A stretch of 64,000 nt of DNA, the filler included, from Basidiobolus ranarum (Eukaryota): NCBI GenBank assembly GCA_040143965.1. It is 19 parts of 19 records of this genome, joined end to end, with 100 filler letters (N's around TTAATTAATTAA, not from the genome) between each part and the next. Parts side by side here need not be neighbours in the genome. Positions count along the whole stretch, not along the records: positions 6,800 to 10,096 come from JASJQH010002584.1; 18 more parts are not named here. One strand, given 5' to 3'. Positions 1,406-36,182 of this stretch are shown piece by piece. A model generated the notes under the pieces. That model made no database searches. It saw only the letters and a list, made by a program, of their open reading frames with translations, and was not told the DNA's origin. The position numbers were made by a program, and so were the translations under genes. Each line of letters starts with the position of its first letter. Within the stretch, counting starts at the first letter, position 1.

Positions 1406-3300
1406 GAAAATACCTCTCCGTGCTTTCTTCCATATATGCAACCTTCATTGGTATTCGTGTTTGTTGTCAGTCAATATTTGTTCCTAGAACAAGCTAATAT
1501 TAAACCATTCAGGTCTATCTTTGTTGCTCATAGTGGTCCAACCTTTTGTGCCTTACTTATAATATATATATATATAGGGTACAGACTGAAAAGTGGATGC
1601 ATCTTGTTTGCTGTAACTTTGAATGCTCCTGAAGTTGTACACCTCATTTCTATGAAAAAGATAAAATATGTGTTTGGGGCATAAAAGTATTTCTGTCAAG
1701 CATGTAGAAAAACTGAACTGATTCTAAGTGAAAAAATCATTCTTCACAAACATTACCATGCCGCATAAGCAAACAGGAACAGACACTTCTCAGTTATTGT
1801 AACACTCAAAACTTCGTGTTAAGCCTCTTCAAACATTTGAGTTCATCTGAAAATGCTAAATTTGCACTAAACCTCTTTGGGTATGAGAAATTGTCATTAC
1901 AACTTGGTACTAATTTACGCTGTAAACTACATCAGGCTTGGTAGGATTCAAGCTATACAACATAGGATAGCTCTCTATCCCCCAGCAGTATATCCACATC
2001 ACGAGTGATAGGGACCATCACATTTAATACGAATATTGATAAATGAGTATCACTTTCTAATGTAGACAATGTACAAACACTATCTCATATTTCCTGAAAA
2101 CTCTAAGCTGGGAACTAGAGTAGATATATAGGAAGTTGGTATATTTTTAACTGAATAACCATTGCACTCTAATTAAATCTCAAACAAAATTCGGACTTCA
2201 GATAAAGCAGAAGATTAACACATCTATACTTAGTTACCTGGGGATATTGAAGCTTGTTGTCATTACTTACGTATATCACCTGTTACACCAATCATATTTA
2301 GTTAAAATATACATATAAATAATGCAAAGGTTAACAAAGTAACAAACCATGATGCATCACTTTACTATGGAATGGACACTCAAATCTCATGCACGTCATT
2401 AATGCTCTTTTTAGCACAGGAATTGGTACCTTGGTCTTCGGCGAAGTCAAAATGAAGGCTTCAAATTCATCACAAATAACCACCTTAGCCTCGATTAGGA
2501 TGAACAACACATGTCATTGGTTGATAAGATCAGTCATTTGTGATGACGGTTATGTGACGTAAGTTAGGTTTGTAACCTTTAACTTTAGCGGAAACGTTAT
2601 GTACACAGTTCGATTCAGGTTAACTATCTAGGTTAGTGGGTCCTACCATCTAGGTTGGTGATTAGTGGATATTTCGATCTAGGTTGGCGTACATGGACAT
2701 ATATATCCTCACAGTTGGGCAGTTTGGCGGTTACAATCTACTTGGGCAATTCGTCAGTTATTTAACAAACCATATAACTTGGCCCTCCTCTTCCATTTGC
2801 TGAACTAAAACATCAACTTGGCAGGAACAAGACCAATGAGGGGAAGTTAGAATCTCAGAAACATTGGTACATTCTGCATGAATTCGACCGCAGAAATATC
2901 CCCAATGTTTACAGATTTTAACCATGATCAGAACATAACAATTAAACGAAGTACATGGATTCGTCAAGTCATAAATAACCAACAAATGGAATTTCTCTCT
3001 TGGACTATTCGAGATCACGGTCTTAGAGTTCTTTTCAGAAATACCGACTCTTCGAGAGATTCGCATAAGACCGGTGATTCCGTATAAAGTGCGGGGATTT
3101 CTCTATTTGAAATTCACAATTCTCTTGTTGGTATATCTCTCTTCATAATGCCAGTCACATCAGTACCTTTAGAAAGTAGCATCCAAAAACTCCGTCCAAA
3201 TGATGAGGGTCAGGATGCACAAAACGAGAAGTCTCCTATGCAACTTAATATCATGCGATTAACACCTACCGGGACCTACACGCTCTATTCTGGAAGTCAA

Positions 3301-6799: not shown

Positions 6800-7077
6800 T
6801 TGTATATTTTTTTGCAGACTTTTGAAGGCATGAAGCTAAAGAATTCTCTCCAAAGCAGAGTCAAAAGTTGCTTCCACTTTTGTCTAAAGCCCCCTTCCCC
6901 AGCTTCTGTCAAGTTTATCAATAACTCCCATATATCCAAGCAAGAATTCATGGTGGATACCTGGGCATCTGTAGAATCATTAGGCATGCACTGTGGATCA
7001 TATAAGTTCCATGTTTCATTGAGCAAGAGCTCTGCAAATTTTGTAACATTGCAATCTGAAAATACTTTGAAATGCAT
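6800..7077 (-). CDS. Hypothetical intronless ORF directly downstream of the primase pseudogene (cut by contig end)
   Basis: Open ~92 codons (MHFKVFSDCN...) starting ~33 bp after the primase stop; no recognisable motif. Confidence 0.3.
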
Positions 7078-7110
7078 GATATCTACAAAAAATTTTAGAA
7101 ATGACTTGCA

Positions 7111-7955
7111 TTATTTTTCATATAAGAATCAAAAACACATGTACATATTCTTATAAAAATATTTATTTTCTCAATAATAGATTCAGTTACACAATTTGCA
7201 ATAACTAGGATAAATTCAATCTAATAGTATTAAGTCTCCCTGTTTACACCTTGTTTTAAATCCACTTGGAATTGATATCTGATCTAGATAAGTTTTATTT
7301 TTAGGAGGCATTGGAAGATTACTTTTCAACTCTATTAAATGTGAATTGTCATATACTCTAACCATTCCTAAGATTATTGATGTACCAATAGAGCTTAAAC
7401 CTATTCAATATTTCCATCTATGTTCTCCAATTTTTTACTGCCTTCAAGCCTAAACAATTGGACTCTTTTGTACACAGACTGATCTAGATAATTAGTCCAT
7501 GAAGTTTTACCATGCTTACAGAGTTTCTGCATGAATACTTCTACTGGCATAATGCTTTTGAAAAAATGGGATGATATAATTATATGGTATGAACTTTTAT
7601 TTAATCCAGTACTATTTCCACAAATATCATAAACATTCATATTTGGAGCATCAAAAGAATTTCTCAAAAAAAAGCATTGTAAATTTGATACAGCATCTTG
7701 GATATTAGCTGGTCCATCTAAATCTATCTTTAGTTTTAGTATATCATTCAAAAAAATAACTTTGTAAAATACTTGGTATGCTGCAGTTAAAACAGTAAAC
7801 CACTTTTCAATATCTGTATACTTGTCAAATCTTGTGTACATTTTACATCCAGAATGTTGAAGAAATACATCATCTGGTGTATGAACATTGGCAACTTTCT
7901 TGTAAAATTTTTTCCAGATATCCATATCATCACTTTTAAAAAAATATAATCTCAC
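7111..7955 (-). pseudogene. AEP-superfamily primase (NCLDV/herpes/PrimPol clade) with C-terminal Zn finger, pseudogenised
   Basis: Motif I FYKVI...KLKIDLD, motif II KSSYHIII, motif III LDQSVYKRVQLFRLEGSKK. After a 1-nt frameshift near 7432: IGEHRWKY*...LLD*IYPSYCKLCN*IYY*ENKY...MCF*FLYEK, where the TGAs read sensibly as CGA (Arg). Confidence 0.8.
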
Positions 7956-8559
7956 ATAACATACCGAAATTCTAATTTTTTTGCCATATTTATGACATAT
8001 TTTTCATATCCTATTATCTCTAGTAAACCATTGAGTTGGGATGCTACTTGATGTTTAATATTATACAAATAACCTATTGGCAAATTATCAAATATAACTT
8101 CAGGCAAAGTATACATTTTTCCCCCTGTTTTTTTCCTTTTGCAACAAATAACTATTTAATACAAAAACCCAGTAAAACAATGCAATTGATAATGAATAAT
8201 AAATGCAAATAGAAATTTTATTATACTGAATGTAGGGAATTTTACCATGATAATTGGAATTCTTAGATAAATAACTCACACACATCAGATCAATCAGTAT
8301 TGTGCCAGCTCAATACAAGATTAATATCATGTTCTCCATCTACTCTAAATGCTCATTCCTCATTAATCCAAAAACTACTACTGGCTTTCCTATAACCACC
8401 CTAGAGGCCATATTTGAGGAATACTGTGGCTCATAAACTCCAATACCTACCAGAAAGCAGCTAGTCAATTTGTTTTGTTACTACAAAAACTATTGTCCAA
8501 TCTGATTTCAGTGCACTATTAATGGTAGCAAAAGTGGGAGAAGCTTCCATATCAGGCTT

Positions 8560-8945
8560 CAAGTAAGTGAGAATTATTTGATTACAGTGATGAATGATGT
8601 TGAAGGTGCCCAGGACAAAAGATTTAGAGACACTAATTTCCTTCCATTTCCTAGAGTATTTCCCAATAGAGTTCATGTCAGAAGTAATCTTGACACATTT
8701 CCTGTGAGAATTAACAGGCACAAAAGCAACCAAAAGCTATTATATTCAGGCTAGTACAAAGCCCACTGTGTAAAGTTCCAGGCCTTGACAGATTTGGAAG
8801 GAAACATCATTTGGTTTCATGGGCCACATCTAGGGAGACACCATAGCAACAGGGTTGAGGTTAAGAGGCATGCACCAATTGTAAGATATGAGAAGACTAT
8901 GGATGATTTGGCATATATTGGGGAAGAATGCAGAAGGCTAGGATG
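8560..8945 (+). mobile_element. Degenerate DDE_Tnp_4-type (PIF/Harbinger/ISL2EU, IS5-like) transposase fragment
   Basis: LDTFPVRI...QKLLYSG*YKAHCVKFQALTDLEGNIIWFHGPHLGRHH ... EKTMDDLAYIG. Confidence 0.7.
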
Positions 8946-10096
8946 TGTCATATATTGGGAAAACATGGGCTGTTTAGAGGAACTTTAGAAAAGTGGTGTT
9001 ACAAATAGCTTTGTGAGATAATTATTTATTGTCCAGAAATAAAGTATTTATACACTTTGGTAGAAATACAGAAAACTAACACTGGGCTTGTGTTCAGAAC
9101 ATCTGTGAGAGTAGAATGGGCCATTTTTGGGGCAATTTGGGCAAGTTTGAAATCTTTAATATGGAATTGCTAATTCTCATATTATTCACATATATTTATA
9201 ATATATGTTCCTATTTTCAGTTAACTGATGTTTGACTAAGTAGTGCTACCTACTTATATGTGACATATGAGATAGTTAGGTGTATCAAGATAGGGATAAC
9301 AAATATGATAAGACAATAAACTTCAACACTCCCACTCAACTAAGTATTCATGTATCTTTAACCTAACTTCAATCTTAATACTTCAAATTTTGGTTTAGGT
9401 AATGGTTTGGTAAGGATTTCAGCAATCTTATCCTCAGCTGGACAGTACTCTAGTTGGACATGCTTATTCTCAATAGCTTCCCTAACAAAGTGATGTTGCA
9501 TGTCAATGTGCTTACTTCTAGCACAAAATTTGGGATTTTTAGCTAAAGAAATACCAATTTGATTATTCTTGAAAATTATTGTAGGTGAACTTTGAGAAAT
9601 GCCCAAGTCTTTGAACAGTTTCCTTAGCCACATAGCCCCCTTTGTTGCATGAGATGCTGATATGTACTCTGCTTCATTTGTTGAAAGTACTATGGTGGGT
9701 TGTTTCTTGCTATTCCAAGATATGACTGCTTCACTATAGAGAAAGATATACCCAGTGATAAATCTTCTGTCCTCAATATCATGTCCCCAATTTGTATCAC
9801 TAAACCTGATGCAATCCTTATTCTCATAAGAATATGTGTATCTTAATCCTAGATCAATTGTCTCTTCAAATATCTGAAAATTGGCTTAAATGCTGCATAA
9901 TGCTTAGATCCTAGGTTTTGCACATGTTGTCTGACTACTACCATGGCAAAAGAGAAATCTGGCCAGGTTCCAGGCATAGTATGGATCAAACTACCTATCA
10001 TAGACTGATAAGGGAACTCAGGGCTTTCAAATGACATATTTTGAGCCATATTTGGCCAATTTTCATCATTTTTGATGGGATTTTTGACTAATTTCA
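8946..10096 (-). mobile_element. Ty1/copia 3' end: RT C-terminus, RNase H, PPT and 3' LTR (~8946-9328)
   Basis: FPYQSMIGSL, SWNSKKQPTI.LST.EAEYI, WLRKL, RSKHIDMQHHFVRE, ILTKPL; PPT GTTGAGTGGGAG followed by TGTTGAAG. Confidence 0.92.
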
Positions 10097-33813: not shown

Positions 33814-33913
33814 NNNNNNNNNNNNNNNNNNNNNNNNNNNNNNNNNNNNNNNNNNNNTTAATTAATTAANNNNNNNNNNNNNNNNNNNNNNNNNNNNNNN
33901 NNNNNNNNNNNNN

Positions 33914-34334
33914 CCACACAACTCATCAAACCAATAATCCAATTTCTGCTGGAGTTCCTACCGCTGGCGTTGGTTCTACTGGAGTTGCTACCAGTAATGA
34001 TCCTTATCACAATGTGTCTGGTGAAAAGCCTTCGACCATGTCAGCCAAGAAGGATCAAGCTGTAGGTGCAATGAAGCAGAGTGTCGGAAGTACCTTCAAC
34101 AAGCCATCCCTTGAAGTTCAAGGTGCAGGCCAGCGACAAGAAGGCCATCTACAAGAGCATGTGGCTAAGAATCAACCAGGAGCTGTCACAGGAACTGCTA
34201 ATGCTGCTACTGGTGCGGTGAAACAAAATGTAGGCTATGCAACTGGCAACCCATCCATGGAGGTCAATGGGGCTTCACAACGAGTACATGGTGATGCACA
34301 ACAGAATGCAGCTTATAACAACAGAGTATTATAA
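33914..34334 (+). CDS. CsbD/LEA-like hydrophilin, copy 1 (3' part)
   Basis: Paralog of the C-terminus of 35295-36182 (KKDQAVGAMKQ.VG, GAVKQNVGYATGN). Confidence 0.8.
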
Positions 34335-35294
34335 ATATTTACTTATCCAGACAACTTACTGTCAGTTAAATTCTTCTCATGTACACCAATTGCACTTTTT
34401 TGTTAAATAGTAAAATAAATATTGCTTCAAAATAACTCATTTGACTACGTTTGCAGTGCATGCATTATAATCCTCTGTTTACAACGGCAAATTTAACAAC
34501 GTAGTTAAATCTACAGCAACACTGATGGCGATTTGCTATAGATATCACTAGGATAATTTTGCGTTGGGTTTGTTTTAATCTTCGTATTTGTTGAGATATC
34601 TAACTTCTGTCCAATTTGAATGCATAAAAAATACACCACTCATTATTAGTATTTCGATTAATAGGCCGGTTTAATATTTATAACTTAAACGGAACAATGT
34701 AAATAAGAGATTTATATATCTCGTTGGTTGTAGCTTTAACGATGGGTTCGAGTATAAGAAACCACTGTGATACCTTGTAGTTCTTGGAGTGATAGTAGTG
34801 TAAATATTAGTAACTTAGTAACTTTAACGATCGGATTCAGTATAAGAATCCACAGTAATACCTGGTGATTCTCAAGGAGTGGTAGCAGTGTAAGTATTGG
34901 TAACTTATTGACAGCAGCTTGAAATGTGAGAAAGAAACTAACGTTAGTCCAAGTACTTTGCGTTCTTCACAGATCAACATATATTGATGGTTCTACCAGT
35001 CGCGAGATTAGCTTCGGTGTTAATCAAGCGGTTGCTATGTGTATGCGTAACGGTACTCATTTAGGTAAAAATGAAATTATGCTAACTAGCATTAGACTTA
35101 AGGCTAAGCTATATTTAGATGCGATGAGATAATTACGGTGACGAAATCAGAACGTAGTCCGTATGACATGATCTGCGAAATATTCATTGCTAATATAAAT
35201 TCATTCTGAATTGAGCGAGTATAAAAAGGAAGTAAGTGATCACCATTATAATTAAAATCAACTGCCTCTAAAATCATATCAATCTAATATCACC

Positions 35295-36182
35295 ATGTCT
35301 AAAATCTCTGCTGCCGCCAAGAACGCCGCTGGTAACATCCAAGAAGGAGTTGGTAAGATGTTCAACAGTGAAAGTATGATCGCCAAGGGCGAACAAAAGC
35401 AAGTTGAAGCTGAACAACAAAAGTTGGCTGCCGAACAAAAGAGTTCAGGTAATGCTCACTCAGCCAAGGGTACAGCCAAACAAAACATTGGTGAGGCTAC
35501 CAACAACCCACACCTAGCTGCTGAGGGTGGAGCCGAACGCTATCATGGAAATGCTCAGCACAATGCTGGAAAGTTAAATGATCCAAGTGACAGAGTAGGT
35601 GCTGGTATTACCGGCACCCATCATACCGGTACCGGAGTAACTGGTACTCATCATACAGGCGCTGGAGTTACTGGTACTGGCTTAGCTGGTACCAATGCTA
35701 GCAACAGTCATATTCCTGGAACCACGAGCACTGCAGGAACTGGTTACACCGGAGCTGATCCACTTCATGGCCATTCAACCAGCACAGGTCACCACACAAC
35801 TCATCAAACCAATAATCCAATTTCCACTGGAGTTCCTACCAGTAATGATCCTTATCACAATGTGTCTGGTGAAAAGCCTTCGACAATGTCTGCCAAGAAG
35901 GATCAAGCCGTAGGAGCTATGAAACAGAATGTTGGAAGTGCTTTCAACAACCCGTCTGTTGAAGTCCAAGGTGCAGGTCAACGTCAAGAAGGCCATCTCC
36001 AAGAACATGTGGCTAAAAATCAACCGGGAGCTGTCGTAGGAACTACTAATGCTGCAACTGGTGCGGTGAAACAAAATGTCGGTTATGCTACTGGTAACCC
36101 ATCTATGGAGCTTAATGGAGCTTCACAAAGAGTACATGGTGATGCACAACAGAATGTAGCTCATAACAGCCGAGTATTGTAA
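35295..36182 (+). CDS. CsbD/LEA-like hydrophilin, 295 aa, four CsbD-like units and a G/T/H-rich linker (copy 2)
   Basis: Intronless ORF; repeated G..KQ.VG...N......G...EG units; TATAAAA at ~35220. Confidence 0.85.
   Translation: MSKISAAAKNAAGNIQEGVGKMFNSESMIAKGEQKQVEAEQQKLAAEQKSSGNAHSAKGTAKQNIGEATNNPHLAAEGGAERYHGNAQHNAGKLNDPSDRVGAGITGTHHTGTGVTGTHHTGAGVTGTGLAGTNASNSHIPGTTSTAGTGYTGADPLHGHSTSTGHHTTHQTNNPISTGVPTSNDPYHNVSGEKPSTMSAKKDQAVGAMKQNVGSAFNNPSVEVQGAGQRQEGHLQEHVAKNQPGAVVGTTNAATGAVKQNVGYATGNPSMELNGASQRVHGDAQQNVAHNSRVL

Follow-up and report, generated by a model that had tools for sequence, protein, structure and literature searches.

Introduction

Endogenous elements derived from pithovirus-related nucleocytoplasmic large DNA viruses (NCLDV), named 'fundsalphavirus', have been described in fungi, including Basidiobolus meristosporus and B. 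heterosporus (Gong, Zhang & Han 2020, PMC7017919). The gene set reported for them comprises a family B DNA polymerase (PolB), D5, an SNF2 helicase, an S-adenosylmethionine (SAM) methyltransferase, RPB1n/RPB1c, RPB2 and RPB5; short Basidiobolus PolB fragments are given in the supplement of that report, and Piromyces sp. E2 is named as another host (PMC7017919). A survey of the major capsid protein (MCP) in 2,543 fungal genomes reports one non-zoosporic match, in Dimargaris (PMC13533422). When the literature was searched for Basidiobolus together with giant virus or Nucleocytoviricota, PMC7017919 was the sole relevant paper. Here we describe a locus from Basidiobolus ranarum, located in a stretch of 64,000 nucleotides of its assembly (GenBank GCA_040143965.1) that is referred to as the window. 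A previous annotation made from the sequence alone (the original prediction) had placed at positions 7111-7955 a pseudogene for a compact giant-virus-type primase with archaeo-eukaryotic primase (AEP) motifs and a zinc finger, and had attributed it to a viral or Polinton-like insert inactivated by methylation, noting that NCLDV-derived insertions have been reported in early-diverging fungi. This last point is in print, with Basidiobolus among the hosts (PMC7017919).

The window is made of about 19 contigs of ~3.3 kb each, separated by linkers (N44+TTAATTAATTAA+N44); features on the two sides of a linker are not physically linked. The primase sits on the piece at 6800-10096, and all its physical context is therefore 3.3 kb. 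With a probability of roughly 0.85, we read positions 7111-8155 (minus strand) as a ~1-kb fossil left by a pithovirus-like giant virus (Nucleocytoviricota) that became integrated; the fossil is composed of the tail of a PolB gene and a dead primase gene, both subjected to CpG decay. The evidence for this reading, and the explanations that compete with it, are presented below.

Results and Discussion

A compact primase gene in two reading frames

A word-index search identified a single close relative of the window gene (E = 1.9e-59), here called P0001, which is an intact protein of 276 aa encoded on a 19.8-kb Logan contig. In an exhaustive search of 1.84 billion representatives the same match had E = 6e-60, far beyond chance. 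The window frames could be aligned to P0001 without gaps, with 57% identity over residues 7-167 and 58% over residues 167-273. The gene lies on the minus strand, between an ATG at 7925-7923 and a TAA at 7113-7111. Its first frame (frame A) covers 7925-7431; beyond the run of six A at 7431-7436 homology moves to a second frame (frame B), where it continues to 7114. The original reconstruction, in which one A was added near position 7432 and five TGA codons were read through to give a protein of ~280 aa, was right almost to the base, since both frames align gapless to P0001; the restored gene has ~272 codons. The gene is also AT-rich (23-32% GC) and intronless, as had been proposed, and begins at 7925, 30 nt short of the limit at 7955 given initially. 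The one-base shift in the A-run could be an assembly error, which can hardly be the case for the five substitutional stops. The use of TGA as a sense codon (mitochondrial, Euplotes-type or any other code) was considered and rejected, because decay accounts better for the frame shift, for the TAA codon and for the statistics of CpG.

A 32-nt imperfect inverted repeat (78% complementary) was observed around the primase open reading frame (ORF), with one arm at 7078-7109, just past the stop, and the other at 7891-7922, in codons 2-12. According to a rough estimate, such a repeat is close to chance expectation in AT-rich DNA.

Membership in the AEP superfamily

The exhaustive search gave 55 relatives of the primase at E<=1e-3, of which three reached E<=1e-10 and one E<=1e-30; two of the 55, P0025 and P0031, are low-complexity, multi-stretch artefacts. 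Alignment A1 contains 41 rows, namely the window ORF and 40 of these relatives, with 15 truncated, multi-stretch or near-duplicate sequences omitted. Seven columns of A1 are invariant (D70, D72, H116, D150, Y154, R161 and K167) and eight more are conserved in at least 90% of the rows (C245, C248, R250, H252, E255, N256, C266 and R268). In the window sequence, D68/D70, the S-Y-H ending at H114 and the stretch D148...K165 fall on the invariant columns, with the AEP motifs in the order I-II-III, so that the motifs read in the original prediction hold. As far as can be judged from sequence, the family architecture is an AEP catalytic core followed by a putative zinc motif, C-x2-C-x3-H-x13-C. The remnant of this motif in the window retains the Cys columns 245, 248 and 266, while the His column 252 has become Tyr and two Arg columns have become TGA.

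No significant match was obtained when the window pieces and P0001 were compared with Pfam, nor when the window ORFs were compared with PHROGs. Among the other 54 relatives, the Pfam model AEP_C962R (PF23162) was detected at E<=0.01 in five, one of them above the cut-off. Profile and fold comparisons were more informative. The A1 profile matched solved AEP structures, with E = 9.5e-21 for human PrimPol (5l2x) and E = 2e-8 for the AEP domain of vaccinia virus (VACV) D5 and monkeypox virus (MPXV) E5; the window ORF alone reached only E = 0.09 against D5. The fold was assessed on the intact relative P0001 instead of the broken window copy, using an AlphaFold2 (AF2) model built from an alignment (predicted local distance difference test, pLDDT, 91.6); the single-sequence fold, with pLDDT 32, was unusable. 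When this model was compared with the PDB using Foldseek, PrimPol ranked first, along with MPXV E5/VACV D5, African swine fever virus (ASFV) PrimPol and herpes simplex virus (HSV) UL52 (E 2.5e-8 to 2e-4). Against the viral models of BFVD, the top matches were proteins annotated as 'DNA primase' from Pithovirus LCPAC104/403/001, P. sibericum (W5S590), Orpheovirus and Cedratvirus (E 1e-20 to 5e-16), with ASFV F1055L in the third rank. In the nearest ESM Atlas clusters, 88-94% of the members with a record are Nucleocytoviricota. On the grounds of motifs, profile and fold, the ancestral protein is a PrimPol/D5-type primase of the AEP superfamily with a zinc module.

The relation of this module to the UL52-type zinc finger is more distant. 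Herpes_UL52 (PF03121) was not matched by P0001 (E<=10), by the other 54 relatives (E<=0.01) or by the window C-terminus with TGA read as R, C or W, which had no match to any other Pfam model either. The zinc ligand order in PrimPol is C-H-C-C, and the same holds for UL52-type proteins; in the window family it is C-x2-C-x3-H-x13-C. A distant kinship is nevertheless likely, because 17-19% of the members in the ESM Atlas neighbour clusters carry PF03121. Thus, of the NCLDV/herpes primase architecture of asfarvirus type that was originally suggested, the AEP core with a zinc motif is backed by profile and fold, and the asfarvirus likeness gives way to pithovirus-like viruses as the nearest that bear a name.

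Viral relatives and a polymerase remnant upstream

Nothing was found in IMG/VR when the window ORF alone was used as query. Four of 72 pattern matches in IMG/VR encode a relative of the primase, as do 22 of 99 in Joint Genome Institute (JGI) metagenomes, from which the two best (L005 and L006) were read. Smaller alignments were used for these locus scans, the full ones being too diverse. Flanking genes were scanned in 35 of the 45 ORFs of at least 150 aa in L001, L002 and L004, leaving out overlapping antisense frames, and in 21 of 28 ORFs in L005 and L006. The neighbours in L001 include a D5-like helicase (D5_N/DUF5906), the C-part of Rpb1, Rpb2, UDG and an XPG-type nuclease, and those in L002 the N-part of Rpb1, an SNF2-type helicase and UDG. 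L005 and L006 each contain PolB, a gene of the primase family, Rpb5, the C-part of Rpb1, Rpb2 and a D5-like gene. In L003 a PolB is present at one end and the primase-family gene ~10 kb away, and L004 is a contig of a giant-virus metagenome-assembled genome (GVMAG) with DNA-repair genes. NCLDV genes therefore adjoin the primase relative in five of the five flanks read (L001, L002, L003, L005 and L006). Two further observations were made on these contigs. L003 (17 kb) has inverted terminal repeats and ~5% completeness according to its IMG/VR classification, and the 72-kb metagenome contig L005 encodes, at 1478-2419 (plus strand), a protein with a HET (heterokaryon incompatibility) domain (E = 2e-15). 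The HET domain is typical of fungi, which hints at L005 being a fungal virus or an insertion in a fungal genome.

Phylogenies were obtained with FastTree (110 rows) and by quick IQ-TREE runs under a mixture model (38 and 42 rows). The window sequence and P0001 formed a pair with support of 99-100, followed by P0002 and P0003 (85-97), and this pair was nested in a group with L001, L002, L003, L005 and L006 (Shimodaira-Hasegawa (SH)-like support 84-95). The nearest relatives with a readable context are thus found among giant-virus genes, with moderate tree support. The sole organism-named relative, among 61 proteins from a profile word search, is a hypothetical protein of Piromyces sp. E2 with 36% identity.

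Comparison of all open frames of the window contig with the related loci fetched revealed a second viral remnant directly upstream of the primase. The frame in question has 67 codons (8155-7955, stop at 7954-7952) and matches residues 802-853 of the 863-aa PolB of L005 with 37% identity over 52 aa (E = 2e-6); the PolB of L006 was matched too. In the window as in L005, the ORF ends 10 codons past the match. It also matches the end of an 804-codon frame on the L003 contig (E = 1.2e-7), which is itself a Pfam DNA_pol_B protein (E = 2e-83). In the comparison with the L005 polymerase no PolB similarity was detected upstream of position 8140. More than one viral gene is therefore represented on the contig, the second by a short match. 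This stretch had also been considered as an upstream exon of the primase (8116-7966, joined through a 32-nt GTATGT...AG intron); that option was rejected, since P0001 begins at the ATG at 7925 and the stretch is the PolB tail.

The data on relatives and neighbours bear on the possibility that, instead of being viral, the locus is a decayed duplicate of the host's gene for the cellular primase-polymerase PrimPol. Human PrimPol is the best match to the profile among solved structures and the first in the PDB fold search, and the trees were built without cellular PrimPols. On the other side, every relative with readable flanks (24-33% identity) is on a contig with NCLDV genes, and in the profile alignment nothing in the compact family corresponds to human PrimPol residues 195-266, an insert of ~72 residues located between motifs II and III. 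PF03121 is a marker of cellular PrimPols, and at E<=0.01 P0001 and the other 54 relatives lack it. Moreover, a viral-type PolB tail precedes the gene by 26 nt, and the GC content of the block is 23-32%, as opposed to 35-45% in flanks that are equally free of CpG. A host PrimPol origin is accordingly given very little credence here, and the proposal of a viral insert is supported both by the NCLDV neighbours and by the PolB tail.

A second alternative is that the source was not a giant virus and was instead a smaller eukaryotic mobile element or virus with an AEP primase (a Polinton/Maverick, polinton-like virus, virophage or transpoviron-like element, for example). The size of the fragment (~1 kb), a contig with neither capsid nor packaging gene, and the inverted repeat described above could be accommodated by this idea; the repeat, by the rough estimate given, is near to what AT-rich DNA gives by chance. 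Protein-primed Polinton polymerases fall under a different Pfam model, and the polymerases matched by the PolB tail are those with DNA_pol_B (PF00136) and the exonuclease domain PF03104. The Polinton-like origin contemplated in the original prediction is disfavoured because of this match to PF00136-type polymerases. The relatives, in addition, adjoin NCLDV markers, namely genes for multi-subunit RNA polymerase and a D5-like helicase, and the nearest viral folds are primases of Pithoviridae type. We regard a small element as highly unlikely, and a pithovirus-like giant virus as the probable source.

CpG depletion and linkage to transposons

The contig at 6800-10096 contains one CpG for 89 expected (observed/expected ratio, o/e, 0.01), with a TpG/CpA excess of 1.31. 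Across the window the o/e ratio is bimodal, with values of 0.01-0.09 in seven of the 19 contigs, 0.61-0.81 in 11 and an intermediate value in one; all seven low-CpG contigs show a TpG/CpA excess (1.31-1.44). A copia RVT_2 domain is present on one low-CpG contig, and DAGAT, MIP and CsbD genes on three high-CpG ones. This distribution looks like repeat-targeted CpG decay at a genome-wide scale.

The codons of the primase tell the same story. The seven Arg codons that survive are without exception AGA or AGG. P0001 has Arg at 17 positions, and there the window shows AGR in four, TGA in three (R239, R250 and R268), CAA/CAG in three and other codons in seven. Decay of CpG in CGA or CGG, on either strand, yields TGA and CAR. 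The other two of the five TGAs, all of which had been taken for former CGA codons, occupy variable columns in which Arg is found in some of the relatives. The terminal branch of the window sequence (0.5) is three to four times as long as that of P0001 (0.12-0.16). The signature fits CpG-targeted decay of the gene. Deamination of methylated CpG in silenced repeats is the simplest mechanism; the inactivation by methylation put forward originally has indirect support in the o/e of 0.01 and the three TGAs at near-invariant Arg columns, and methylation itself we infer from composition. The low GC of the viral block is probably in part that of the donor, since the flanks are equally CpG-free yet less AT-rich.

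Pieces of two transposons share the contig with the primase, which in turn carries one frame shift and five stops. A Harbinger-like fragment contains a YSG-K..H...D..G motif that we take to be a transposase motif. A copia-like fragment at 9358-10096 matched no Pfam model, and its assignment to copia is our assumption from a motif. These data speak to a further explanation, in which the viral DNA would never have been integrated and would come from a free or episomal virus, or from a contaminant co-assembled with, or chimerically joined to, fungal repeats. Such an artefact is easier to conceive in a fragmented assembly and on a contig of only 3.3 kb. It does not agree with a gene that is dead (through the frame shift, the five stops and the loss of a zinc ligand), with a near-total loss of CpG common to the viral block (0.00-0.05) and to transposon-bearing host contigs (0.02-0.09), or with the presence, flanking the block on the same contig, of a copia-like family dispersed in the assembly. 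The linkage to transposons and the shared CpG decay argue for integration, and a free virus or contaminant seems to us a very poor explanation. The coordinates of all features are collected in Table 1.

Table 1. Features of the B. ranarum contig at window positions 6800-10096. Column numbers are those of alignments A1 (41 rows) and A2 (seven sequences); P0001 is the intact relative.
Feature	Position	Strand	Basis or remark
Giant-virus-type AEP primase pseudogene, compact, ~272 codons, C-terminal zinc motif, intronless	7111..7925	-	Gapless two-frame alignment to P0001
AEP motif I, IDLD, putative metal-binding DxD (D68 7724-7722, D70 7718-7716)	7716..7724	-	Invariant columns D70/D72 of A1
AEP motif II, S-S-Y-H	7584..7595	-	Invariant H116 and near-invariant S114 of A1; aligns with SFH of poxvirus D5
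AEP motif III, D..VYK..Q.FRLEGSKK (D-QSVYKRVQLFRLEGSKK)	7431..7484	-	Invariant D150, Y154, R161 and K167 of A1; aligned to D5 and PrimPol
Six-A homopolymer, one-base frame shift	7431..7436	-	Frame A homology stops and frame B begins at P0001 residue 167
In-frame TGA no. 1	7405..7407	-	Opposite P0001 K176; R in P0003
In-frame TGA no. 2	7216..7218	-	Arg column R239, invariant in A2
In-frame TGA no. 3	7183..7185	-	Near-invariant Arg column R250
In-frame TGA no. 4	7171..7173	-	Opposite P0001 Q254, variable column
In-frame TGA no. 5	7129..7131	-	Near-invariant Arg column R268
Zinc-motif remnant, C-x2-C-x-R-x-H-x2-EN...C-x-R	7129..7200	-	Near-invariant A1 columns C245, C248, R250, H252, E255, N256, C266 and R268
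C-terminal remnant of family B DNA polymerase, ~62 codons plus stop	7952..8155	-	Homology 8140-7985; ends 26 nt before the primase ATG
AT-rich block with both viral remnants, ~1.25 kb	7050..8300 (approximate limits)	none	GC 23-32%, against 35-45% in the flanks
Open frame, 92 codons, running off the contig end	6801..7077	-	Outside the AT-rich block; membership in the insert without support
Frame-broken PIF/Harbinger-like transposase fragment	8506..8988	+	Weak match to Pfam DDE_Tnp_4 (E = 0.0084), below the cut-off
Ty1/copia-like pol C-terminal fragment of a dispersed family	9358..10096	-	Paralogs with ~68% nt (50-58% aa) identity in three other window contigs

The ORF at 7077-6801 had been proposed as a possible second gene of the insert. 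It had no Pfam match, no relative in IMG/VR and no longer homolog, its rows in the ESM Atlas were unspecific, and nothing in these comparisons points to a viral origin. The antisense frame at 6800-7156 is open too (118 codons on the plus strand, to the contig end), with no detectable relative. Elsewhere in the window, two tandem-looking CsbD-repeat proteins were observed on the contig at 33914-37194 (ORFs 33870-34334 and 35256-36182). The second has four CsbD stretches (E = 4e-34), which is unusually repeat-rich for a bacterial-type stress domain in a eukaryote.

Proposed history of the fragment

Taken together, the fossil would consist of the last ~62 codons of PolB and, after a gap of 26 nt, a complete but dead gene for a compact stand-alone primase. 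The ~275-aa protein may have functioned in the living virus as an archaeo-eukaryotic-type primase or primase-polymerase, a role suggested by homology, with DxD, SxH and D..VY..R..GS.K as the predicted catalytic site. The Cys/His motif at the C-terminus is a predicted zinc binder and might help to hold the single-stranded template, and the viral PolB and a separate D5-like helicase are the probable partners. After integration, the fragment could have been handled like the neighbouring transposons. CpG-targeted C-to-T decay, most simply by deamination of 5-methylcytosine, would have removed nearly every CpG, with the result that CGA codons for arginine became TGA stops or CAA/CAG codons for glutamine; the shift by one base in the A-run and the replacement of the zinc-binding His would have completed the inactivation. 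The fragment is without present function.

Several points weigh against this history. The context of the primase fragment is limited to 3.3 kb, and a chimeric contig is possible. When the other 18 contigs of the window were compared with 370 ORFs of the related loci, no match below E = 0.02 was found. The PolB assignment is based on ~52 residues at 36-37% identity, with no Pfam match for the 67 aa of the frame. Synteny is not conserved: the tandem PolB and primase of the window correspond in L005 and L006 to divergent genes separated by ~2.4 kb. The wider viral clade has moderate support (approximate likelihood-ratio test, SH-aLRT, 84-87 in the mixture-model trees), the trees contain no cellular PrimPol sequences, and the closest relatives, P0001-P0003, are all from Logan contigs. 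Finally, a CpG-targeted process akin to repeat-induced point mutation (RIP) would leave an identical signature.

The finding is a further datable relic in what is a sparse record of contact between giant viruses and non-zoosporic fungi, and indicates that a small stand-alone primase accompanies the PolB, RNA polymerase and D5 set of pithovirus-like elements. It is also a clean example of a genome destroying foreign DNA, with a near-total loss of CpG and arginine codons turned into stops, and an intact copy with 57% identity (P0001) exists in public data. We know of no free giant virus from non-zoosporic fungi such as Basidiobolus. A bolder proposal, which we put forward tentatively and consider rather unlikely, is that the compact primase, with its variant zinc module and without a curated Pfam family, belongs to the core replication genes of a pithovirus-like lineage and has so far gone unrecognised as such, and that this lineage infects, or recently infected, fungi of this type. 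If this were true, the intact P0001, with its short branch, would derive from a virus of such a fungus that is still living or is very young. By itself the finding changes no open question, because endogenous NCLDV fragments in Basidiobolus have already been published.

Comparison with known systems

The characterized enzymes that most resemble the window family are human PrimPol (5l2x, 7jk1), VACV D5/MPXV E5 (8xif/8xig), ASFV C962R (8iqh) and HSV UL52, with which it shares motifs I-III, the AEP fold and a zinc module placed after the core. Human PrimPol differs in having ~72 extra residues between motifs II and III, whereas large helicase modules are fused to D5, C962R and UL52, or form a complex with them, and the window-family protein stands alone.

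Closer in structure are the stand-alone primases of Pithoviridae-like viruses, annotated as 'DNA primase' or 'DNA helicase/primase' (Pithovirus LCPAC104 A0A481Z3W0, P. sibericum W5S590, Orpheovirus A0A2I2L5S9 and Brazilian cedratvirus A0A2R8FET7), which were the best structural matches of P0001. In the fold-search rows used for this comparison, identity with the P0001 model was 18-25% over ~300 columns. As in the window family, an AEP domain precedes a Cys/His module at the C-terminus, and the protein is distinct from the D5-like helicase. Their length is greater (334-492 aa versus ~275), and the window copy, for its part, is a pseudogene carried by a cellular genome.

With respect to endogenous elements, the fragment is a small NCLDV remnant of a kind already published for Basidiobolus. 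The fundsalphavirus elements were described in B. meristosporus and B. heterosporus, whereas the window comes from B. ranarum, and the compact primase is not one of the six shared genes named for them (PMC7017919). As described in that report, they coincide with the window locus in the host genus, the pithovirus-like affinity of PolB (presumptive for the window remnant), the presence of fragmentary copies with stops and frame shifts and the proximity of retrotransposons, and with the related loci analyzed here in PolB, D5, the SNF2 helicase, a split RPB1, RPB2 and RPB5 (PMC7017919).

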